From positions 1 through 7,264 of IMG/VR virus record IMGVR_UViG_2565956631_000003: 7,264 nt of DNA; one strand, written 5' to 3'. The notes under the pieces were generated by a model, which saw only the letters and a program-made list of their open reading frames with translations, had not been told where the DNA came from and searched no databases. The DNA comes from a virus. Its lineage: Duplodnaviria > Heunggongvirae > Uroviricota > Caudoviricetes. Every line of letters starts with the position of its first letter. The first letter of the stretch is position 1. A program made the position numbers and the translations under genes. Shown here piece by piece: positions 1 through 7,264 of this stretch.

Positions 1-63
1 CGTTGGAAGGTATTTGCAGTTTTCGCAGATTATGTCGGTGATACTTCGTCGCTGTCTCGCCAC
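1..63 (-). CDS. Partial ORF downstream of ninB, 3' end beyond the window; possible nin-region gene with a C-x2-C motif
   Basis: The ninB reading frame stays open after its stop (199-201) to position 1 on the minus strand. The best start is GTG at 63..61, preceded by AGGAGG (73..68). Translation [21 protein letters not shown]... Not in the ORF track because no stop lies within the window. GTG starts at 180 or 114 are possible but lack a Shine-Dalgarno. Confidence 0.3.
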
Positions 64-198
64 ACGTCCTCCTTTTCCTGCGGTAGTGGTACACCCCTGT
101 TGGTGTTCTTTCACACCGGAGACACCATCGATTCCAGTAAGGTTGATTTGGTCGGAAGCGGTTATCTTCTTTGCATTCACCGCACCGATAACATCGCA

Positions 199-639
199 TC
201 ATGCTGCCCTGTCTCCCCATCTTGCTTTCCACTCCAGAGCTAGTCGCGCTTCATCTGACCACTTAACTCCACGCTCTGTACCGAATGCCTGTATAAGCTC
301 TAATAGCTCCGCAAATTCGCTTACACACATCCTGCTGGTTGACTTGCCTATTACCACAAAGCCATTCCCGGCAAGGTTAGGAACAACATCCTGCTGCTTT
401 AATGCTGCGGTAAACACACACTTCCAGCTTTCTGCATCCAGCCAGCGACCATGCCATTCAACCTGACGAGAGACGTCACCAAGGCAAGCCCAAAGCTTTC
501 GGTTTTGGTCTAAGCTGCGGTTGCGTTCCTGAATGGTTACTACGATTGGTTTGATTGGGTCTGGAAGGATTTGCTGGATAGCTTGAATGGCGTTCTGCTG
601 ATGAATGGGGCTTCTTAGTTCAAACGTTCGTTTCCTCAT
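199..639 (-). CDS. ninB: NinB recombination protein (lambda NinB/Orf family)
   Basis: 146-aa [59 protein letters not shown]..., matching my recollection of lambda NinB almost along its full length. AGGTGA Shine-Dalgarno before ATG 639..637. Position downstream of the replication genes is as in lambda/P22. Confidence 0.88.
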
Positions 640-874
640 GGCTCACCTTCTGCACGCATGGATTAATTAACGCCAAAATAGCTTCTGGTTTCTCAATAAC
701 ATCGAACCGCTCACCACTTGCCATTCTTACAATCGTAAATCCGGCATCAAATAGGGTTTCGATGTTGTCAGAGTTAACGTACAAGGGCTCATATGCACTT
801 CTGGTGCTTTCTATCACGCCTGTGCTTGGTGGCTGATAGATGCTGCATTGCATGGTTAATTTTATAAATGGCAT
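620..874 (-). CDS. Hypothetical 84-aa protein, unrecognised
   Basis: ORF with ATG at 874..872 preceded by AAGGAG at 9-nt spacing. Its 3' end overlaps the ninB start by 20 nt, and it lies 5 nt downstream of the preceding gene, so it is operon-packed. No family recognised by eye. Confidence 0.6.
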   Translation of the reverse strand: MPFIKLTMQCSIYQPPSTGVIESTRSAYEPLYVNSDNIETLFDAGFTIVRMASGERFDVIEKPEAILALINPCVQKVSHEETNV

Positions 875-878
875 ATAC

Positions 879-1199
879 TCACTCCTTCAATTTGACTCCA
901 GCAGCTCGGATGTTTTCCTCATAAGCATCCATTGCATCACCGAAGCCATTGGAATAATCAACAGTAAACCCTTTGGCTAATGCTTCTCTGCTGTCGATAA
1001 ACTTTGGCGCGGTTATTTCAATAGCTGATCGCGATGCCTGCCACGTTTGCCAGTGGCCTTGAACATCGTCCATCACATATTGACCACCAATATTACCACT
1101 GCCAATTTCATGGTGATTTTCAGGGTAACGGATAAGGTCTGAGGATTCGCCTCCACGTCGCAACCAACTTTCTTCAAACTGCTTTCTTGATTCGTCCAT
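879..1199 (-). CDS. Hypothetical 106-aa protein, unrecognised
   Basis: ORF with ATG at 1199..1197 preceded by GAGGG at about 9 nt. Acidic soluble protein with a Gly-rich segment (HEIGSGNIGGQY). Its start lies 15 nt after the stop (1219-1217) of the upstream membrane-protein gene. Confidence 0.6.
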   Translation of the reverse strand: MDESRKQFEESWLRRGGESSDLIRYPENHHEIGSGNIGGQYVMDDVQGHWQTWQASRSAIEITAPKFIDSREALAKGFTVDYSNGFGDAMDAYEENIRAAGVKLKE

Positions 1200-1216
1200 C
1201 GATACTTACCCTCAGT

Positions 1217-1423
1217 TCAACTCACAAAACGCCACGCCATTTTTGCTACAGCGACAGGCATAACACCGATAATCACCCACAGGAAAATGCTACCGAAAAG
1301 CACACCCACCAGGTCTTTACCTTCGCCTACCAACCGGACAAAACTGCTGGCAACAACAATGAACGTCGCCACCATCCACATAGCACCGAGAATCCTCAAT
1401 GCAGAGAAAATTAACTCAGCCAC
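1217..1423 (-). CDS. Small (68 aa) membrane protein with two predicted transmembrane helices
   Basis: GTG start at 1423..1421 with a GGGGGAGAG Shine-Dalgarno 6 nt upstream. Sequence (M)AELIFSALRILGAMWMVATFIVVASSFVRLVGEGKDLVGVLFGSIFLWVIIGVMPVAVAKMAWRFVS shows two hydrophobic stretches of about 20 aa separated by a short charged loop. Confidence 0.55.
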   Translation of the reverse strand: MAELIFSALRILGAMWMVATFIVVASSFVRLVGEGKDLVGVLFGSIFLWVIIGVMPVAVAKMAWRFVS

Positions 1424-1438
1424 GATTTACTCTCCCCC

Positions 1439-1470
1439 AAATAAAAAGGCCCGCGATTACCAGCAGGCCT
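1439..1470 (-). terminator. Intrinsic terminator after the helicase gene (tR2-like position)
   Basis: Minus-strand RNA GGCCUGC-UGGUAAUC-GCGGGCC forms a 7-bp GC-rich stem (one G-U pair) with an 8-nt loop, followed by UUUUUAUUU. Located between the helicase stop and the next gene. Confidence 0.55.
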
Positions 1471-1498
1471 GTTACAAGCTCAGTGATGTAGATGGTCA

Positions 1499-2935
1499 TC
1501 AGAATCCTCCTTTCTTCTTGGACTGCGGTTCCTCGCGTTCACGGCGGCGCATTTCAGCAGACTGTTGGTCTGTGTCATAAATAGCGCCATTTGCCTGTAT
1601 GCAATACACCGTGCCGGTATTGCCATGGCGATTGAGGCGAAGGATTAGTTCGGTTTCACCAGGAGGAACGCTGTCATCAAAAGCACCTTCACGATGGATC
1701 CCCACCCAATAATCGCAATCCTGTTCAATCTGCCCTGTATCTCGTGAGTCACTTGGTAATGGGCGTTTATTGGTTCGGCTTTCCAGTGCGCGGTTAAGCT
1801 GTGTCAGAAGCACAACAACACAATCAAGCTCTTTGGCAAGGTTCTTCAGTCCTTTGGTGATCATGCCGTAAGCAAGGTCGTTGCGATCGGCCTTCTCAGC
1901 GGTCATTAGTGTCAGGTAATCGACCAGAATCATGCCAACACATCCTTTTTCTCGCTTGATTCGACGACTTTCGCTGACGATTTGAGCCAGAGATAATCCC
2001 GGCGTGTCGTCGATGTAAAGCAGGTCGATTTCACTCAAGCGATTGGCTGTTTCGATCGCCCTGTTGAAGTCACCATCGTAATCACCCTGATAGCCGTCAT
2101 CGGCGTCATTTGTCGCCGGAAGGTAAAATATATTCGGGTTAACACCAGACTTCTGCCCTACCAGTTTTTCCAGTATCTGGTCACCTGGCATTTCAAGGCT
2201 GAACATCAGAGCTGGCTTTTTCTCATGCACTGCGCAGTTGATTGCCATCTGGCTGTATAGCGTCGTTTTCCCCATCTTAGGGCGAGCGCCAATGACAAAC
2301 AGAGAGCCTTTAACCAGACCTTTCGGTGACAGCATCCTGTCCAGCGATGGGATCCCTGTGCTCATTCCTCGTTGTTCGCCTGACGGGTCAAATCGCTTCT
2401 CAAGGTCGCTAACCCAGTCTTCCATGACCTCACCAAATGAGCGAAGGCCGCGACGCGATCCGGTTTTTGCATGGTCTGTCAGTTGCGTGAAAATCGCCTG
2501 AATAGCTTCGTACTTCTGCGTTGCAGTCATTCCGTTGCGGGAATAGAGCAATTCCGTCGCTTCAGTCATGCGGTTGATGGCGTAGCGTTCCATTGCGGTT
2601 TCACGAACCTGCATTGCATAGGCAACGATGTTTGCTGCGCTTGGCGTGTTCTTTGCGATCTCAGCGATATAAGCAAAACCGCCAACAGACGCCGTTAACG
2701 ATTTACGCTCCAGTTCATCGAAAAGCGTCAGGCCATCTACTGGCTTTTGCTCACGGTGCATTCTGGTTATTTCTTCGAAAAGGATTTTGTGTGGTCGACT
2801 GTAAAATGAATCAGGCTTCAGCATCGCCAGGACTTTCTGGACGCGCTCACTGCTGTCATCATCCAGAAGCAATCCACCAATCACCGCCTGCTCTGCCTCG
2901 ATGCTATGGGGCGGCGCATAAAAATTATCGGTCAT
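1499..2935 (-). CDS. Replicative DNA helicase, DnaB family (P22 gene 12-like)
   Basis: DnaB-like N-terminal region (SIEAEQAVIGGLLLD), Walker A GARPKMGKTT, and a RecA-like C-terminal core. Start taken as ATG 2935..2933 (MTDNFYAPP...) with GAGGG 9 nt upstream; the ORF track's 2950 start is an upstream in-frame GTG. The start overlaps the stop of the upstream initiator gene (ATGACCGATAA). Confidence 0.9.
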   Translation of the reverse strand: MTDNFYAPPHSIEAEQAVIGGLLLDDDSSERVQKVLAMLKPDSFYSRPHKILFEEITRMHREQKPVDGLTLFDELERKSLTASVGGFAYIAEIAKNTPSAANIVAYAMQVRETAMERYAINRMTEATELLYSRNGMTATQKYEAIQAIFTQLTDHAKTGSRRGLRSFGEVMEDWVSDLEKRFDPSGEQRGMSTGIPSLDRMLSPKGLVKGSLFVIGARPKMGKTTLYSQMAINCAVHEKKPALMFSLEMPGDQILEKLVGQKSGVNPNIFYLPATNDADDGYQGDYDGDFNRAIETANRLSEIDLLYIDDTPGLSLAQIVSESRRIKREKGCVGMILVDYLTLMTAEKADRNDLAYGMITKGLKNLAKELDCVVVLLTQLNRALESRTNKRPLPSDSRDTGQIEQDCDYWVGIHREGAFDDSVPPGETELILRLNRHGNTGTVYCIQANGAIYDTDQQSAEMRRREREEPQSKKKGGF

Positions 2936-3824
2936 CGTGTTCACCCTCACGAACTTTCAGGTAGGTATTATCGTTAAGCAGGAAATCAAATCCCTTTTTG
3001 TGCCAGACGGTTCCGCGTTGATGGTTTAGGCGCTCTTCGAACATCCATCGGCAATTTTCGCCTACGTAGCTCAAATAATTTCTCCAGTCCTGCATCGTGA
3101 ACCCATGCCCGTCAAGCTGGCGTGTTATCACTCCGGCTTTTCGCCAGAACGTTCGGATCTGGTTTTTACGCTTGTCATTCAGTGCGCGGATTTTTGGCGC
3201 TTCAGGAAGGATTTCGTGGTAAGCATCGACAACATCCTGACAGCTAACGGAAGGTTTTTTCTTGTCAGACTTTTTGTCTGCTGCGGTACTCTCTAATACG
3301 TCAGTATTAGAGATAATATTATTATATTCTTTATCTGTGGTAATTTGCTGGTAATCTGCTGGTACAGTATTGCTTGCAGGCATTGGTATTGCTGGCTTTG
3401 AGGTGGTAATTTGCTGGTAATCTGCTGGTACAAAATTTGACTGATAATCGTCATATTTCTCTACCGAGAAAACTGAGAATTTACCGTGTGAAACCCAGTC
3501 AATCATGCCGAGCTTTTTGAACTTTCTAAGCAGGTACTGAACGCGATCTGGTTTGAGTCCTGTTTCAAACGCCAGAGAGTTTCTACCGCCAAGTAGCTTC
3601 CCTCTGCCTACCAGAATTTCTCCTGCGTCAGTCATTACATACTCAGGCGTATGCTTTGCTTTGAGGATTAAGTGAACCCACAGATGCGCAGCTTCTGCGT
3701 CCTTGTAAAACGGCACATCCATAATTTTACGGTGCAGCAAGGCATACCCCTTACCGCTGCTTTGATGCGGTTGTTGTAGCCTTCTGGCCTCTCTGGCTTC
3801 GGCTAGATTAGATATGTTACTCAT
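2925..3824 (-). CDS. Phage replication initiator (lambda O / P22 gp18 functional analogue) containing the origin
   Basis: 299-aa ORF immediately upstream of, and coupled to, the helicase. N-terminal region looks like a winged-helix DNA-binding domain. A central duplicated peptide [10 protein letters not shown] is encoded by the iteron DNA. Family assignment is by position and architecture, not a confirmed match. Confidence 0.75.
3305..3431. repeat. Replication origin-like iteron array with flanking AT-rich tract, inside the initiator gene
   Basis: Two perfect 30-bp copies of GTGGTAATTTGCTGGTAATCTGCTGGTACA at 3336-3365 and 3402-3431. Each holds two sub-iterons of about 11 bp (GGTAAT[T/C]TGCTGG), with degenerate copies between (GGTATTGCTGG at 3384-3394). 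Adjacent AT-rich stretch at 3305-3335 (ATTAGAGATAATATTATTATATTCTTTATC) lies downstream in the gene's direction, as in lambda ori. Confidence 0.65.
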
Positions 3825-3963
3825 GACCTTTCTCCTTCTGCATCAGCTTCACTTTTTCCAACTCAGCCCGGAATCGACCAGGCTGCTTGAAGCTGGACAG
3901 GAAGCGATCACGTAGTATGTGTTTGTGAATTTTGTCCTGGTAAGGACTGAGTTGTTTTGTCAT
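3817..3963 (-). CDS. Small 48-aa basic ORF between cII and the initiator gene
   Basis: ATG at 3963..3961 preceded by GGAG at 5 nt. Translation [48 protein letters not shown]. Its TAA stop overlaps the initiator start (ATGAGTAA), suggesting translational coupling. Absent from the ORF track, presumably because it is short. Confidence 0.35.
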
Positions 3964-3973
3964 AATTACTCCT

Positions 3974-4049
3974 GTGGATTGATCCAGTAATTCCCTCAGA
4001 ATTGCATATCAATTTGCTTAAAATCCTCGGTGGCGGCCGGGGATTTTTT
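3974..4049 (+). ncRNA. oop: oop-like antisense RNA overlapping the 3' end of cII
   Basis: -10 CATAAT at 3961-3966 with a weak -35 TGGTAA at 3938-3943. Plus-strand intrinsic terminator at 4025-4049: CCUCGG-UGGCGG-CCGGGG stem-loop followed by AUUUUUU. Predicted transcript of about 76 nt. GAUCCAGUAAU...CCUCAGAA resembles my recollection of lambda oop RNA. Confidence 0.55.
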
Positions 4050-4292
4050 CTTTGTGATTTCATCAAGCGCATACTTAAAAGCCCTGCTAATCGGACTGAT
4101 GTCTGATGCCATTCCGAAAGCACACAAGACCGAAGCAATAAATCTCCAGTCCGTTCTGCTTATCTTCGATTCATGACAGCCAATCATCTTTGCCAGACCG
4201 CGCTGGGTAAGCGTTGACAGGTTGATTAGTAAATCAGTTTCAGCGCGATCAATTTCTCGCTGTGTTGGCTTGCTGTAGCTTGCTTGTGCCAT
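3996..4292 (-). CDS. cII: CII-like transcriptional activator
   Basis: 98-aa ORF whose C-terminus ...[18 protein letters not shown] is close to my recollection of lambda CII (...TNKKRPAATERSEQIQMEF). Helix-turn-helix segment ...SKISR.... Sits between cro and the replication genes. AGGAAA Shine-Dalgarno upstream of ATG 4292..4290. Confidence 0.85.
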
Positions 4293-4302
4293 TTGTTAAT
4301 TT
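4270..4302 (+). promoter_or_regulatory. PRE-like CII-dependent promoter (antisense to the cII 5' end, directed toward the repressor gene)
   Basis: TTGC-N6-TTGC direct repeat at 4270-4273 and 4280-4283 (TTGCTGTAGCTTGC), the CII-binding architecture of lambda pRE. Weak -10 TAATTT follows 13 nt after the second repeat (4297-4302). Position inside the start of cII matches lambda. Confidence 0.45.
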
Positions 4303-4350
4303 TCCTATATTGGTATTGAGTTATAGCGGCACACCCAATGGATTTGCCGC

Positions 4351-4390
4351 TGATGTTTGCTCACCCGGTTAGAGGTGAAAGGCCAGAACT
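4351..4390 (-). promoter_or_regulatory. nutR (boxA + boxB) N-utilisation site
   Basis: Minus-strand boxA GCTCTTTAACA (4390..4380). boxB hairpin UCACCU[CUAACC]GGGUGA (4368..4351) has the same 6-nt loop as the nutL boxB. Located between cro and cII, as in lambda. Confidence 0.6.
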
Positions 4391-4407
4391 GTTAAAGAGC
4401 AATTTGC

Positions 4408-4593
4408 TTATGCCGCTTGGCGGTAAGCACTTTCTTGATACTTCAGGGCGCCAGCTGTAACGATTTCCAATCGATAGGCGTCTTTCTCTGGGATAACTTC
4501 TTTCCACTGAGAGACTGCTGCATCGCTAATGCCTAGTGCTTTAGCAACAGCACGCTGGGTTCCGAAGTGGTCAATAACATCTTTTTTGTACAT
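4408..4593 (-). CDS. cro: Cro repressor (P22 Cro-like, 61 aa)
   Basis: MYKKDVIDHFGTQRAVAKALGISDAAVSQWKEVIPEKDAYRLEIVTAGALKYQESAYRQAA matches my recollection of P22 Cro. GGAG Shine-Dalgarno 7 nt upstream. Divergent from the repressor gene across the operator region. Confidence 0.9.
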   Translation of the reverse strand: MYKKDVIDHFGTQRAVAKALGISDAAVSQWKEVIPEKDAYRLEIVTAGALKYQESAYRQAA

Positions 4594-4607
4594 AGACTCG
4601 CTCCGAA

Positions 4608-4673
4608 ATTAAAGAACACTTAAATTATCCACCAAAGGAATCTTAAGTCAAGTTTATTTAAGATGTCTTAACT
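4608..4673. promoter_or_regulatory. Right operator region with three P22-type operator sites and divergent PR/PRM promoters
   Basis: Three 18-bp sites fit the P22 operator pattern ANTNAAGNNNNCTTNANT: 4608-4625 ATTAAAGAACACTTAAAT, 4631-4648 ACCAAAGGAATCTTAAGT, 4656-4673 ATTTAAGATGTCTTAACT. PR on the minus strand: -35 TTGACT (4651..4646), 16-bp spacer, -10 GATAAT (4629..4624). The repressor ATG at 4674 has no Shine-Dalgarno, so it may be leaderless from PRM. Confidence 0.7.
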
Positions 4674-5324
4674 ATGAATACACAACTGATGGGTGAGCGT
4701 ATTCGCGCTCGCAGAAAAGAACTCAAGATTAGGCAGGCTGCCCTTGGAAAGATGGTTGGCGTGTCTAATGTTGCTATTTCCCAATGGGAGCGATCTGAAA
4801 CTGAGCCCAATGGCGAAAACCTATTGGCCTTAGCCAAGGCTTTGCAGTGCTCCCCTGATTACCTGTTGAAAGGAGAGGATAGTCTTTCAAACATTGCCTA
4901 TCACAGCAGGCATGATCCAAGAGGTTCGTATCCTCTAATTAGTTGGGTAAGCGCAGGATGTTGGATGGAAGCTGTAGAGCCATATCATAGGCGTGCAATA
5001 GATAACTGGTACGACACAACGGTAGATTGTTCTGAAGACTCTTTTTGGCTCGACGTTAAAGGCGATTCAATGACTGCCCCGGCAGGACTGAGTATTCCTG
5101 AGGGGATGATTATTCTCGTCGACCCAGAAGTCGAACCACGTAATGGAAAGCTGGTAGTCGCCAAACTTGAAGGAGAAAACGAGGCGACATTCAAAAAGTT
5201 AGTTATTGATGCCGGTAGAAAATTCCTGAAACCACTCAATCCACAATACCCAATGATTGAAATCAATGGGAACTGTAAAATCATTGGCGTTGTCGTTGAT
5301 GCCAAGCTAGCAAACCTTCCTTAA
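4674..5324 (+). CDS. c2: Prophage repressor, P22 c2-type (HTH plus S24 LexA-like autopeptidase domain)
   Basis: 216-aa ORF MNTQLMGERIRARRKELKIRQAALGKMVGVSNVAISQWERSE... with an N-terminal helix-turn-helix, an Ala-Gly cleavage site (VSAG-CW), a catalytic Ser in GDSM and a downstream Lys. Near-full-length match to my recollection of the P22 c2 repressor. Confidence 0.92.
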   Translation: MNTQLMGERIRARRKELKIRQAALGKMVGVSNVAISQWERSETEPNGENLLALAKALQCSPDYLLKGEDSLSNIAYHSRHDPRGSYPLISWVSAGCWMEAVEPYHRRAIDNWYDTTVDCSEDSFWLDVKGDSMTAPAGLSIPEGMIILVDPEVEPRNGKLVVAKLEGENEATFKKLVIDAGRKFLKPLNPQYPMIEINGNCKIIGVVVDAKLANLP

Positions 5325-5349
5325 GGGGCTTTCGCCCCTTTTTTATTTC
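5323..5349 (+). terminator. Intrinsic terminator downstream of the repressor gene
   Basis: AAGGGGC-TTTC-GCCCCTT hairpin (5323-5340) followed by TTTTTTATTT. Confidence 0.6.
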
Positions 5350-5388
5350 CCGTTAAAAATCAAAGACAAACTAAATTCACACCCATAA

Positions 5389-5442
5389 AATTAAGTTTTC
5401 TTCAAAAATGCACTTGACCAATAAATTAAGAAGTCTTAAATT
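5389..5442 (+). promoter_or_regulatory. Left operator/promoter region (OL sites and PL)
   Basis: Two P22-type 18-bp operator sites: 5389-5406 AATTAAGTTTTCTTCAAA and 5424-5441 AATTAAGAAGTCTTAAAT. PL: -35 TTGACC (5414-5419), 17-bp spacer, -10 TAAATT (5437-5442), directed toward N. The second operator overlaps the spacer and -10. Confidence 0.6.
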
Positions 5443-5488
5443 TAAGCCATCAGCAGGACGCTGGAAGCCAAACGGAACAGATTGGCAG

Positions 5489-5528
5489 GCTCTTTAACAT
5501 CGACGGACTCTCAACCTAACCGTTGAGA
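5489..5528 (+). promoter_or_regulatory. nutL (boxA + boxB) N-utilisation site
   Basis: boxA GCTCTTTAACA (5489-5499). boxB hairpin UCUCAAC[CUAACC]GUUGAGA (5509-5528), a perfect 7-bp stem with a 6-nt loop. In the PL leader upstream of N. Confidence 0.65.
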
Positions 5529-5638
5529 CCAGAACTTGAGTGGTTTTGGGGATGGCGCGAATTGCAGCTGCAAGACAGCGATCGAGAAGATAAGCACCTC
5601 GACGCGTCATGCGCCAAAGCCACTTAAAGGAGACCATC

Positions 5639-5944
5639 ATGGTAACCATTGTCTGGAAAGAATCCAAAGGTACGGCAAAAAGCCGCTACAAAGCTCGCAG
5701 AGCAGAACTTATTGCCGAGCGACGCAGTAATGAAGCACTGGCGCGAAAAATTGCTCTAAAGCTCTCTGGTTGCGTCAGAGCAGACAAAGCAGCATCACTC
5801 GGAAGCATTTGCTGCAAGAAGAAAGAAGAAGTCGTTCGAAAAAATAGAAGTATTTATTACAAGGATTCAAACCCATTAGGAAACAAAATACATGCAGTCC
5901 AAAAAATAAAATTGTACAGTAAACTACCGTACGGTGCTTATTGA
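5639..5944 (+). CDS. N: N-type transcription antiterminator (phi21-like arginine-rich motif)
   Basis: AAGGAG at 5627-5632, 6 nt before ATG 5639. N-terminal MVTIVWKESKGTAKSRYKARRAELIAERR is the arginine-rich boxB-binding motif I recall for phage 21 N. First gene after nutL. The in-frame ATG at 5609 lacks a Shine-Dalgarno. The 3' third of the gene is markedly AT-rich. Confidence 0.8.
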   Translation: MVTIVWKESKGTAKSRYKARRAELIAERRSNEALARKIALKLSGCVRADKAASLGSICCKKKEEVVRKNRSIYYKDSNPLGNKIHAVQKIKLYSKLPYGAY

Positions 5945-5946
5945 GT

Positions 5947-6285
5947 ATGCTTATGGTGAAAAAGACTATTTATGTTAATCCTGACCGCGGACAAAACAGA
6001 AAAGTATCTGATAGAGGTCTTACATCTCGAGACAGGAGGAGAATAGCGAGATGGGAAAAGAGGATAGCATATGCATTAAAAAACGGTGTAACACCTGGAT
6101 TTAATGCTATAGATGACGGTCCTGAATATAAGATTAATGAAGACCCAATGGATAAAGTTGACAAAGCATTAGCAACACCATTTCCTCGCGATGTCGAAAA
6201 AATTGAAGATGAAAAATATGAGGATGTAATGCACAGAGTTGTTAATCACGCTCACCAACGAAATCCAAATAAAAAATGGTCATAG
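5947..6285 (+). CDS. Hypothetical 113-aa protein in an AT-rich segment immediately after N
   Basis: ORF begins at the N stop (TTG 5941, ATG 5947 or 5953; no clear Shine-Dalgarno, so the start is uncertain). Arg-rich N-terminal half (RGQNRKVSDRGLTSRDRRRIARWEKR) and acidic C-terminal half (EDPMDKVDK...EKIEDEKYED). AT-rich codon usage unlike the flanking genes. No family recognised. Confidence 0.5.
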   Translation: MLMVKKTIYVNPDRGQNRKVSDRGLTSRDRRRIARWEKRIAYALKNGVTPGFNAIDDGPEYKINEDPMDKVDKALATPFPRDVEKIEDEKYEDVMHRVVNHAHQRNPNKKWS

Positions 6286-6309
6286 CACACTTCGGTGGGT
6301 TTTTTATTG
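6286..6309 (+). terminator. Possible weak terminator (tL1-like position)
   Basis: Short CAC-UUCG-GUG hairpin followed by GGGUUUUUUAUU. The stem is weak; the U-tract is strong. Confidence 0.3.
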
Positions 6310-6418
6310 TCTGAACTAACCGAATTTATTACAGCAAGCCACGCAGTGAAATGGGTGTGACTTGTGTTGGTCGCCAGAAAATGAAATTAGGCAGCAAACC
6401 ACTTATTTGAGGTGATAT

Positions 6419-6505
6419 ATGGAAGAAGAATTTGAAGAGTTCGAAGAGCATCCTCAGGATGTGATGGAACAATACCAGGACTATCCGTATGACTACGACT
6501 ATTGA
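6419..6505 (+). CDS. 28-aa highly acidic, aromatic-rich micro-ORF overlapping the ral start
   Basis: GAGGTGA Shine-Dalgarno 6 nt before ATG 6419. Translation MEEEFEEFEEHPQDVMEQYQDYPYDYDY. The TGA at 6503-6505 overlaps the ral ATG (6489) by 17 nt. Confidence 0.4.
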   Translation: MEEEFEEFEEHPQDVMEQYQDYPYDYDY

Positions 6506-6689
6506 TAAAAATCAATGGTGTGGACAATTCAAGCGATGCAATGGATGCAAGCTGCAATCGGAATGCATGGTTAAGCCTGAAGAAATGTTTCCTGTAATGG
6601 AAGATGGGAAATATGTCGATAAATGGGCAATACGAACGACGGCAATGATTGCCAGAGAACTTGGTAAACAGAACAACAAGGCTGCCTGA
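6489..6689 (+). CDS. ral: Ral antirestriction protein (lambda Ral-like, 66 aa)
   Basis: MTTTIDKNQWCGQFKRCNGCKLQSECMVKPEEMFPVMEDGKYVDKWAIRTTAMIARELGKQNNKAA matches my recollection of lambda Ral. Four Cys (C-x5-C-x2-C-x5-C). Early-left operon position downstream of N. Confidence 0.7.
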   Translation: MTTTIDKNQWCGQFKRCNGCKLQSECMVKPEEMFPVMEDGKYVDKWAIRTTAMIARELGKQNNKAA

Positions 6690-6728
6690 TGGTGGCCTTT
6701 ATTTTTGGCATAAACAACAGAGGCTAAC

Positions 6729-7025
6729 ATGGAATTTAAAGGTACTGAAGGTAAGTGGGAAATAATGATGGATGGCGATGAGATTAAAATCATCCAGGCA
6801 GACTCACTTGAAAATGGCGCAGGCTGGCGTTCGTATATTGCAATCTGTGAGGAAGTTCAATGTATTGAAGATGCCAATCTAATAGCGGCAGCACCTGACC
6901 TTCTCGAAGCACTTCAGTTATTACTTAAGCAATCCAAAAATAGAACAACGACAACATATCCAGAATGGTATGGAGCTGTTAATAAAGGTCTTGCAGCAAT
7001 CAGCAAGGCTCTGGGAGGTGAATGA
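6729..7025 (+). CDS. Hypothetical early-left protein with an ANLIAAAPDLLEAL motif (possibly Ead/Ea22-like)
   Basis: 98-aa ORF with GAGG Shine-Dalgarno 5 nt upstream. The NLIAAAPDLLEAL motif recurs in small lambdoid early proteins by my recollection. Family assignment is tentative. Confidence 0.55.
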   Translation: MEFKGTEGKWEIMMDGDEIKIIQADSLENGAGWRSYIAICEEVQCIEDANLIAAAPDLLEALQLLLKQSKNRTTTTYPEWYGAVNKGLAAISKALGGE

Positions 7026-7234
7026 TGTGCGAGTTTTATGAAGCAGATATCAAACGCCCAGAAATGGCAAGTGATGCGACATTACGTGATTACTTCGCTG
7101 CTAAGGCTATGGCAGCAATAGTGCGCAGATGGGACGGACATTCCTTTGGCGGTGGACAGAATTCACCACAGTACAAAGAATTAGCAGATGATGCCTACTT
7201 TATTGCTGATGCCATTCTCAAAGCTCGCGAATAA
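7022..7234 (+). CDS. Hypothetical 70-aa protein, translationally coupled to the upstream ORF
   Basis: ATGATG start overlaps the upstream stop (GGAGGTGAATGATG), with GGAGG as Shine-Dalgarno. The true start may be ATG 7025. No family recognised. Confidence 0.55.
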   Translation: MMCEFYEADIKRPEMASDATLRDYFAAKAMAAIVRRWDGHSFGGGQNSPQYKELADDAYFIADAILKARE

Positions 7235-7264
7235 GCACTGTGTATTCATTCCAACGAGTGAATA

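Follow-up and report, generated by a model that had tools for sequence, protein, structure and literature searches.

The interval 4608-5442 is, with high confidence, an imm21 immunity region, carried by a lambdoid prophage of the coliphage 21 type. It is very probable that this region arrived as a single inherited piece comprising the 5' part of cII, nutR, cro, OR, the repressor gene, OL, PL, nutL and the first part of N. Judged by its sequence, this immunity and antitermination block is already known, and is not a novel P22/phi21 hybrid. The sole twist is an HK022-type nun exclusion gene within N, an arrangement that many of the phages sequenced to date also carry. The window discussed here is the whole 7,264-nucleotide stretch analysed, and its features are collected in Table 1.

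Table 1. Predicted genes, sites and mosaic segments of the window, in order of position
Feature	Position	Strand	Basis or match
Segment: lambda-like ninD/E	1-207		
ninB, 146 aa	199-639	-	Identity: HK022 96.6%, phage 21 93.8%, lambda 93.2%, P22 90.3%
Segment: HK022-like nin and replication genes up to cII	~580-4298		
DnaB-like replicative helicase (P22 gp12 / HK022 P type)	1499-2935	-	Pfam DnaB, DnaB_C
Replication initiator O (HK022 / P22 gp18 type)	2925-3824	-	96-100% to HK022, mEp235
orf48 (DUF2740)	3817-3963	-	Pfam DUF2740, E = 9e-29; 85% to P22 orf48
oop promoter	~3938-3966	+	Mapped from P22 oop promoter annotation
oop-like antisense RNA	3974-4053	+	Terminator scan; putative RNA ends
cII, 98 aa	3996-4292	-	phrog_191
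oop terminator hairpin, then U run	4020-4047	+	
Segment: phage 21	~4060-5790		
pRE cII-binding site TTGC-N6-TTGC, predicted	4270-4283		Read from sequence; matches mEp235 annotation
nutR (boxA GCTCTTTAAC 4400-4391; boxB hairpin 4379-4360)	4360-4400	-	Folding, pattern
cro, 61 aa	4408-4593	-	100% to phage 21 Cro
OR1	4608-4625		Pattern search
PRM	within OR region 4608-4673	+	
PR	-35 at 4651-4646, -10 at 4629-4624	-	Promoter scan; overlaps operators
OR2	4631-4648		Pattern search
OR3	4656-4673		Pattern search
Immunity repressor, 216 aa, LexA/S24 type	4674-5324	+	100% to phage 21 cI frame
Repressor-gene terminator	5323-5340	+	Terminator scan and folding
OL3, degenerate (also in phage 21)	5360-5377		Mapped from phage 21 record
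OL2	5389-5406		Pattern search
PL	-35 at 5414-5419, -10 at 5437-5442	+	Promoter scan; overlaps operators
OL1	5424-5441		Pattern search
PL transcript start	~5449	+	Mapped from phage 21 record
nutL (boxA GCTCTTTAAC 5489-5498; boxB hairpin 5509-5528)	5489-5528	+	
N, 101 aa	5639-5944	+	phrog_271; intact frame, good Shine-Dalgarno
Segment: HK022-like nun cassette	~5807-6317		
Insertion relative to phage 21 N gene, 472 bp	5862-6333	+	N-frame restoration on deletion
nun, Nun-like transcription arrest/termination factor	5947-6285	+	phrog_5632, E = 2e-69
N 3' end remnant, phi21-type, untranslated (NRIYYSKPRSEMGVTCVGRQKMKLGSKPLI, then stop)	6318-6410	+	
Segment: phage 21/lambda-like N' remnant, orf28, ral	6318-6721		
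Lambda orf28-like small ORF, 28 aa	6419-6505	+	Read from sequence
ral, 66 aa	6489-6689	+	66/66 identical to lambda and phage 21 Ral
ral terminator	6678-6699	+	Terminator scan and folding
Segment: other lambdoid genes	6722-7264		

The control block matches phage 21 without a break

In 100-bp windows the DNA from about 4060 to 5790 is 99-100% identical to coliphage 21 with no break, a span that takes in most of cII, nutR, cro, OR, the repressor gene, OL, PL, nutL and the first 56 codons of N. Identity to phage 21 is again 99-100% at 6350-6700, while P22 reaches 75-95%, and only over 4390-5503. A single BLAST block, 3956-5861, aligns to phage 21 at 97.5%. Over the full length of 4300-5640, phage 21, lambda imm21, phiv205-1, mEp235 and DN1 (a DE3 derivative) match at 99.6-99.7%. 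The figure for P22 in this comparison is 83.7%, and its nucleotide identity in the BLAST alignment to the window is 83.5%. Carriers of the imm21 block thus far seen are lambda imm21, DE3, phiv205-1, mEp235 and Kapi1. Among 50,697 phage records, no P22-group phage was closer than phage 21 across 4400-5500. A uniform match to a single phage was therefore found for 4300-5640; over all 7.3 kb of the window, coverage by a single record peaks at 81%.

The initial annotation had paired P22-type immunity with a phi21-type N, which amounts to a P22-derived immunity cassette (c2, cro and operators) joined to a phage-21-derived N and nutL at junctions near gene ends. Seen against P22 alone there is indeed an apparent switch, with homology beginning at 4390, just after cro, and ending at 5503, between boxA and boxB of nutL. 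However, phage 21 runs at 99-100% straight through both points, where P22 stands at 75-95%, and the repressor and Cro are those of phage 21, differing from the P22 proteins at 14 and 1 residues. Because phage 21 identity runs through 4390 and 5503, the P22/21 homology boundary is an old property of phage 21 and not an event in this prophage; the supposed partners are already contiguous in coliphage 21, and we regard such a joining as very improbable. The 99.6% identity of the imm core to lambda imm21, and the matches to DE3-related records, would also fit DNA from an imm21 laboratory construct (lambda imm21 or DE3) in place of a natural prophage. But the flanks, made up of HK022-type replication genes, a nun cassette and non-lambda genes, are absent from lambda imm21 and DE3, and the fullest matches to the wider context come from chromosomes of wild E. 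coli, among them BR1220 (goose) and strain HS, so the chance of such an origin is negligible. An imm21 block inherited whole remains the reading we adopt.

Repressor, Cro and operators

The likeness to P22 reported for the repressor, Cro and operators of this imm21 block is real (93.5% identity to P22 C2, 98.4% to P22 Cro, shared operators), but the closest relative is phage 21, at 100%. The repressor belongs to the same family as that of P22 immC and has a nearly identical DNA-binding domain, its N-terminal domain matching PDB 1ADR/2R1J (P22 C2) with 2 changes in residues 1-66. Ala94-Gly95, the Ser of GDSM at 130-133 and the Lys of FKKL at 173-176 would, by analogy with lambda cI, have the catalytic roles.

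A pattern search with the operator consensus ANTNAAGNNNNCTTNANT found five sites with 0-1 mismatch. The operators take the form ANTNAAG-N4-CTTNANT, with three 18-bp sites at OR and three at OL, of which OL3 is degenerate. P22 immC has the same 18-bp consensus; OR1, OL1 and OL2 are identical there, and OR2 and OR3 differ at 2 bases and 1 base. The whole of OR, 4608-4673, is base-for-base that of phage 21 and differs from P22 OR at 4 bases, and the OL/PL region (5360-5449) is 99-100% identical to phage 21. The positions of operators, promoters, boxA and boxB coincide with the annotation of the phage 21 record. The five strong operator sites fall precisely at the ends of the interval 4608-5442 picked out by the initial annotation, flanking the repressor gene.

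From the identical repressor and operators we predict that a lysogen is immune to phage 21 and lambda imm21. We take phage 21 and P22 to share immC specificity, and the host strain is probably immune to P22-immC-type phages as well. A literature search found no explicit statement of 21/P22 homoimmunity; only a citation of Poteete et al. 1980 turned up.

A chimeric N with phi21 RNA specificity

The nutR region is 98-100% identical to phage 21, which has boxA-R and nutR annotated there, and the coordinates of nutL are those of phage 21's annotated boxA-L and nutL stem-loop. Both boxB hairpins have a 7-bp stem and a CUAACC hexaloop, and lambda-type boxB is absent from the window in a search allowing up to 3 mismatches. 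Codons 1-56 of N are identical to phage 21 N, and residues 8-29, the arginine-rich motif, are those of the phi21 N peptide in PDB 1NYB chain A, solved with its boxB. The earlier assignment of the arginine-rich motif and boxB to phi21 is borne out, and the specificities deduced from the sequence, P22/21-type for the operators and phi21-type for N and boxB, were correct.

From about 5807, near codon 57, the last third of N follows the donor of the nun cassette. Identity to phage 21 N is 77.6% overall and sparse over the final 30 residues; the C-terminal part is unlike phage 21 N while keeping the family pattern IYY...G...QKIKL..SK.P. This N thus reads as a chimeric allele with phi21 RNA specificity, and not as phage 21 N proper. 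In lambda N the C-terminal region contacts RNA polymerase. Because the corresponding third differs here from phage 21 N, the full function of the chimeric protein is assumed, on the strength of the presence of the allele in the phage isolates mEp235, mEpX1 and Kapi1; with PDP110P1, these carry the same allele at 97-99% identity.

The nun cassette inside N

The 472-bp insert is flanked by a 10-bp direct repeat, ATTTATTACA, at 5852-5861 and 6324-6333. Within it are the 3' codons of N, the region of the nun promoter, nun itself and a terminator-like hairpin that is weak. When 5862-6333 is removed in silico, the frame of a phi21-type N reappears (...IYYSKPRSEMGVTCVGRQKMKLGSKP) and runs to the TGA at 6408-6410; the phage 21 coordinates of the two BLAST blocks flanking the insert overlap by 16 bp. 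The stretch 5827-6302 is 96.4% identical to HK022 and 6318-6721 is 98.5% identical to phage 21. Both nun and the N 3' remnant had been missed by the initial annotation.

Read from the ATG at 5953, nun gives a 110-aa form, identical to HK022 Nun at 109/110 residues. It is identical at 108/109 residues to PDB 6ALG chain N, the single change, S11R, lying outside the ARM and the C-terminal region. Its residues 20-45 correspond to the 26-residue peptide of Nun in PDB 1HJI (E = 5.5e-11), an identity that follows from the 6ALG alignment. The ARM is kept, as are the C-terminal H93, R94, N97, H98, H100, R102, K106, K107 and W108, residues tested in PMC5386594. The nun promoter annotated in O276 (-35 ATGCAG, -10 TACAGT) aligns unchanged to about 5892-5920, and the hairpin directly after nun has no folding advantage over shuffled sequence (z = -0.4). 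Expression of Nun from the prophage is predicted.

Robert et al. 1987 reportedly found that Nun ignores phi21 nut sites. On this basis, and given the published description of Nun action as specific to lambda (PMC5386594, PMC4124055), we predict that Nun would be indifferent to phi21 boxB. The prophage Nun should exclude phages with lambda-type nut/boxB.

The replacement of the last third of phage 21 N, with the original 3' end left untranslated, and a Pfam N_peptide match confined to residues 4-60 and below threshold, could suggest that the nun insertion inactivated N and left a cryptic prophage in decay, defective in N and with a control module no longer able to sustain lytic growth. Against this, the 101-aa frame is intact behind its good Shine-Dalgarno sequence, the substitute C-terminus has the family pattern, the window's remaining early genes are all intact, and the same allele with nun is found in the isolates mEp235, mEpX1 and Kapi1 and in Stx1a-converting phages. 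We consider inactivation improbable and treat N as an intact chimeric allele carried on an imm21 block.

The nutL-N-nun-N' arrangement, counted at a threshold of at least 80% coverage, occurs in 212/5426 complete E. coli genomes and in 22 phage records. The N-nun cassette neatly illustrates how a moron-like element can insert into a regulatory gene, and it is already widespread in sequenced phages and E. coli genomes. A literature search for N plus Nun in mEp235-type phages found general Nun papers only and no discussion of the combination.

In HK022, polymerase modified by put resists Nun. The swapped C-terminus of N might likewise be coupled to nun in function, beyond linkage, the N tail protecting its own elongation complexes from Nun or competing with it. 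In every phage inspected (mEp235, mEpX1, Kapi1, PDP110P1, PA28 and Stx1a phages) nun follows this N 3' allele. A plainer reason for the linkage is that the nun promoter sits within those codons. We think functional coupling unlikely; if true, N with phi21 specificity and Nun with lambda specificity would be a matched offence/defence pair, mobile as a unit.

HK022 shares with the window the 120 bp upstream of nun, including the annotated nun promoter, at 96% identity, but it lacks an N gene and relies on put RNA. Of this N allele it retains, ahead of nun, just the final ~39 codons, in which TGG replaces the stop codon, whereas here those codons form the 3' end of a full N gene under a phi21-type nutL. 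In tblastn, N residues 22-101 match the HK022 putL-nun interval at 58.8%, with the identities nearly all in the last ~39 residues; outside these the N/putL alignment is about 22% identical and includes a stop codon. We do not claim that HK022 putL derives from N coding sequence.

cII, replication genes and ral

The cII protein shares 98% identity with that of HK022, 89.8% with that of phage 21, 37% with lambda cII and 24% with P22 C1, which places it in the HK022/HK97/21 type. Lambda likeness had been noted in the cII C-terminus, oop, ninB and ral. It holds for only the last ~18 residues of cII. For the oop region, nucleotide identity is 79% with lambda but 100% with HK022, and ninB is likewise nearer to HK022 (97%) than to lambda (93%). 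For ral the claim stands, Ral being 100% identical to that of lambda and that of phage 21.

The elements of the cII/pRE/oop circuit are all present, with TTGC-N6-TTGC in the 5' end of cII and the oop terminator in its 3' end. Folding of the predicted oop RNA gives two hairpins (-30.4 kcal/mol, z = -3.6). An Rfam scan of the whole window, sub-threshold matches included, gave only a chance snoRNA-like match within cro (E = 0.53), so Rfam lends no independent support to oop, nut or put.

The helicase gene has about 98% nucleotide identity to HK022. Two 35-nt direct repeats in the O gene, 94% alike (3337-3371 and 3403-3437), are ori-like and by analogy with lambda O/ori may be iterons. On the far side of the nun cassette, the orf28-like region shares 98-100% identity with lambda and phage 21, and lambda orf28 lies directly upstream of ral. 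Ral is 75% identical to P22 Ral and should alleviate restriction in the host.

Mosaic structure and named relatives

The description of the window as a lambdoid mosaic is upheld: by segment-wise identity it is built of phage 21, HK022-like and lambda-like pieces. The expected placing of module boundaries near gene ends is not. The real breakpoints lie in or at cII, where the HK022-type replication genes start, inside N, and after ral; two of the main ones, in N and in ninB, are intragenic. The 5' ~60 nt of ninB (about 580-639) are 94% identical to HK022 vs 74% to lambda and phage 21. As HK022 and phage 21 are both about 99-100% identical there, the left edge of the phi21 block is placed to 4060-4298.

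Phage 21 (OL657228) is 99-100% identical from most of cII to N codon 56, has identical repressor and Cro proteins, and is 98.5-100% identical over ral and the N 3' remnant. It differs in having O/P replication genes of the lambda type and a cII whose C-terminus resembles that of lambda; it lacks nun, and nothing interrupts its N gene. The order cII-cro-repressor-N-nun is found at 98-99% identity in mEp235 (NC_019708), Kapi1 and the E. coli BR1220 and HS prophages; mEp235, whose genes are annotated N-like and Nun-like, matches 1170-6411 and the BR1220 prophage 1430-6731. The nin-side genes (1-1170) are different, and mEp235 and Kapi1 diverge after 6411, hence lack this ral segment. P22 differs in its N (gp24, 34% identical), its boxB, its c1 (24% identical to this cII) and its sieB, and no immI region is visible in the window.

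A model of control and exclusion

The following steps rest on the lambda/P22/21 paradigm. In a lysogen, repressor of the LexA type would occupy the 18-bp sites OR1-3 and OL1-3, keep PR and PL off and promote its own production from PRM. RecA-stimulated self-cleavage of the repressor would let PL and PR fire. The arginine-rich motif of N would then bind the phi21-type boxB of nutL and nutR and, with boxA and host Nus factors, allow RNA polymerase to read through downstream terminators. cII would act at pRE, with antisense oop RNA tuning cII. The HK022-type cassette within N would supply the substitute C-terminus, the nun promoter and nun, and the Nun made by the prophage would arrest transcription of superinfecting phages with lambda-type boxB, sparing the prophage's own phi21-type nut sites.

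Likeness to the most famous relative, P22, can mask an exact match to the less familiar phage 21, and such a masked match can make a recombination junction appear where there is none. The correct annotation is an imm21-type immunity region with an N of phi21 specificity, a Nun-like exclusion factor and Ral, not a P22/phi21 hybrid. The predicted phenotype of the host would combine 21/P22-type immunity, phi21 nut specificity, Nun exclusion of lambda and restriction alleviation by Ral.

Early region and control elements

The 7,264-bp window is the early region of a lambdoid prophage, with the rightward operon on its minus strand. The sequence features on which the initial annotation had relied (operators, a phi21-type N motif and boxB, a lambda-like ral) were borne out as real rather than chance by pattern searches, folding and identities. 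The interval it had singled out, 4608-5442, ends exactly at OR1 and OL1. All five matches to the P22/21 operator consensus (0-1 mismatch) are intergenic, in two regions on either side of the repressor gene, and a promoter scan placed PR and PL hexamers overlapping them. There are exactly two copies of boxA (GCTCTTTAAC) in the window, one past cro and one past PL, and on the 3' side of each lies a hairpin of 7 bp whose loop is CUAACC. The phi21 N peptide whose structure was determined together with its boxB (PDB 1NYB) agrees with N at every residue from 8 to 29, and Ral is identical to lambda Ral.

Features of the window, from gene calls, protein comparison, profile searches (Pfam, phrog) and, for operators, a pattern search
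Feature	Position	Strand	Remark
ninB	199-639	-	
HK022-type small genes (three)	620-874, 879-1199, 1217-1423	-	
DnaB-like helicase	1499-2935	-	
O-type initiator	2925-3824	-	
orf48/DUF2740	3817-3963	-	
cII	3996-4292	-	
cro	4408-4593	-	
Operator matches	4608-4625, 4631-4648, 4656-4673, 5389-5406, 5424-5441		
Repressor	4674-5324	+	
N	5639-5944	+	
nun	5947-6285	+	start 5947 or 5953
Leftover 3' end of N	6318-6410	+	untranslated
orf28-like ORF	6419-6505	+	28 codons
ral	6489-6689	+	
Small gene, function unassigned	6729-7025	+	98 aa, phrog_1273
Small gene, function unassigned	7022-7234	+	70 aa, phrog_2201

Several smaller observations concern individual genes. The equivalent of lambda orf28 encodes an acidic product (MEEEFEEFEEHPQDVMEQYQDYPYDYDY) and overlaps the start of ral. 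In the nin region, the first small HK022-type gene encodes an 84-aa homologue of HK022 gp60 that matches phrog_8458 (E = 8e-40), a family named 'flagellar protein', and falls just below threshold for Pfam FlbD (E = 3e-5; 23.9 bits against a cutoff of 24.7). The lambda-identical ninD/ninE sequence (1-207) directly adjoins ninB; lambda ninC (PAPS-reductase-like) is absent between them, as it is in phage 21. Within O, two 35-nt direct repeats (3337-3371 and 3403-3437, 94% alike) encode a repeated PADYQQITT motif and, by analogy with the lambda ori inside O, are probably origin iterons.

Phage 21, not P22, is the close relative

The initial annotation had read the region as P22-type immunity paired with a phi21-type N. 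Local BLAST against fetched reference loci and a table of identity in sliding 100-bp windows gave one picture, and it does not support that pairing. Coliphage 21 (OL657228) matches 3956-5861 as a single block, with 99-100% identity from ~4060 to ~5790 and again at 6350-6700, whereas P22 homology is confined to 4390-5503, with 83.5% identity (75-95% in individual 100-bp windows). Compared with phage 21, the repressor (against the cI reading frame) and Cro are both 100% identical; the corresponding P22 figures are 93.5% and 98.4%. OR matches phage 21 at every base and has four differences from P22. When 4300-5640 was searched against the database, lambda imm21, phiv205-1, mEp235 and a DE3 derivative matched along its entire length at 99.6-99.7%, against at most 83.7% for P22-group phages. 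Immunity and N were thus not joined here as two modules but are the native contiguous layout of phage 21. The points at which P22 similarity stops, 4390 and 5503 (the latter between nutL boxA and boxB), are the edges of old P22/21 homology.

P22 and 21 reportedly share immC specificity, as Botstein and Herskowitz described in 1974, which is consistent with their identical helix-turn-helix region. In the phage 21 record, the repressor is annotated from an internal Met (190 aa); the uninterrupted 216-codon frame at 4256-4906 of that locus is identical to the window repressor and co-linear with P22 C2. The close kinship of the two phages' operators is classical (Poteete et al.).

Junctions within genes

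Unless based on BLAST, junctions were placed from the sliding identity table. Lambda matches 1-207 (ninD/ninE region) at 96-100%. While ninB is common to all phages compared, its 5' end and the sequence onward to 4298 follow HK022 (94-100%), with a short mEp235-like patch at ~900-1050. HK022-like sequence gives way to phi21-like sequence at some point in 4060-4298, a stretch over which HK022 and phage 21 each show ~99-100% identity to the window; further left (cII 3' end, oop; below ~4060) the window follows HK022, at 100%, and not phage 21, at 74-82%. Phi21 identity falls off inside N from ~5790, HK022 takes over at 5827-6302, and identity to phi21 and lambda returns at 6318 and stops at 6721, past the ral terminator. 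Beyond, 6694-7264 matches other lambdoid phages. The two halves of 6722-7264 match different ones (mEp043, 97%; Dewey and CurroJimenez, 99.6%), which suggests an additional junction near 6995-7025. Several junctions are thus intragenic, in N and ninB, with another in or at cII, contradicting the earlier view that module boundaries fall near gene ends.

A nun cassette inserted in N

The initial annotation missed a complete nun, which starts 3-9 nt past the N stop codon. Its product is identical to HK022 Nun at 109 of 110 residues and to the cryo-EM chain 6ALG_N at 108 of 109; its ARM matches a Nun peptide whose structure bound to lambda boxB is known (PDB 1HJI), and the C-terminal residues probed in PMC5386594 are all conserved. 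Compared with phage 21, N carries a 472-bp insertion (5862-6333), with the 10-bp direct repeat ATTTATTACA on both sides. When the insertion is removed in silico, a phi21-type N frame (...IYYSKPRSEMGVTCVGRQKMKLGSKP) is regained that continues to the TGA at 6408-6410. The cassette supplies N with a homologous but divergent C-terminus (...IYYKDSNPLGNKIHAVQKIKLYSKLPYGAY), and the nun promoter annotated in O276, an HK022 hybrid, lies within these cassette-derived codons and is conserved in the window. The 50 bp left of the insert (about 5807-5857) already hold 14 clustered differences from phage 21 and match HK022, so that on the left the two N alleles seem to have been joined by homologous crossover; on the right, the join looks illegitimate.

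Downstream of nun, the leftover 3' end comprises 30 codons and the stop of the original phi21-type N. It is diverged in mEpX1 and mostly matched (to 6411) in mEp235 and Kapi1, so the insertion into N is old.

Proposed regulation

The following scheme is drawn from the lambda, P22, 21 and HK022 paradigms. Repressor bound at OR and OL would turn off PR and PL while being synthesised from PRM. On SOS induction it would cleave itself at Ala94-Gly95, derepressing the prophage; it has the GDSM and FKKL motifs, which hold the presumed catalytic Ser and Lys. N would load on the phi21-type nutL and nutR for antitermination, cII would activate pRE at 4270-4283, and oop (~3974-4053) would act antisense to the 3' end of cII. 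Nun would be made constitutively in the lysogen, bind lambda-type boxB on transcripts of superinfecting phages and arrest RNA polymerase, as described for Nun (PMC5386594, PMC4124055). A pattern search found no lambda-type boxB in the window, and the prophage's own nut sites should therefore escape Nun.

Relation to known phages

The control module is already known. Identical modules with N and nun are present and annotated in mEp235 (98.6% over 1170-6411) and Kapi1, and also in wild E. coli prophages such as BR1220 (98.9% over 1430-6731) and HS. In mEpX1 the nutL-N-nun unit is as in the window, but the immunity region is different. HK022-type phages, unlike the window, lack N and retain of this allele only the final ~39 codons, directly 5' of nun; in HK022 and O276 these codons contain the annotated nun promoter, and the stop TGA has become TGG (HK022 locus L002, 7634-7760; O276 locus L009, 1290-1412). 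Of 5426 complete E. coli genomes, 212 contain the unit that extends from nutL through N and nun to the N remnant at a coverage of at least 80%, as do 22 phage records, among them PA28 and Stx1a-converting phages.

A mechanistic coupling of the swapped N tail with Nun is an improbable idea. As the best single record in database searches covers no more than 81% of the window, its exact patchwork is one more lambdoid combination, as expected for the group.
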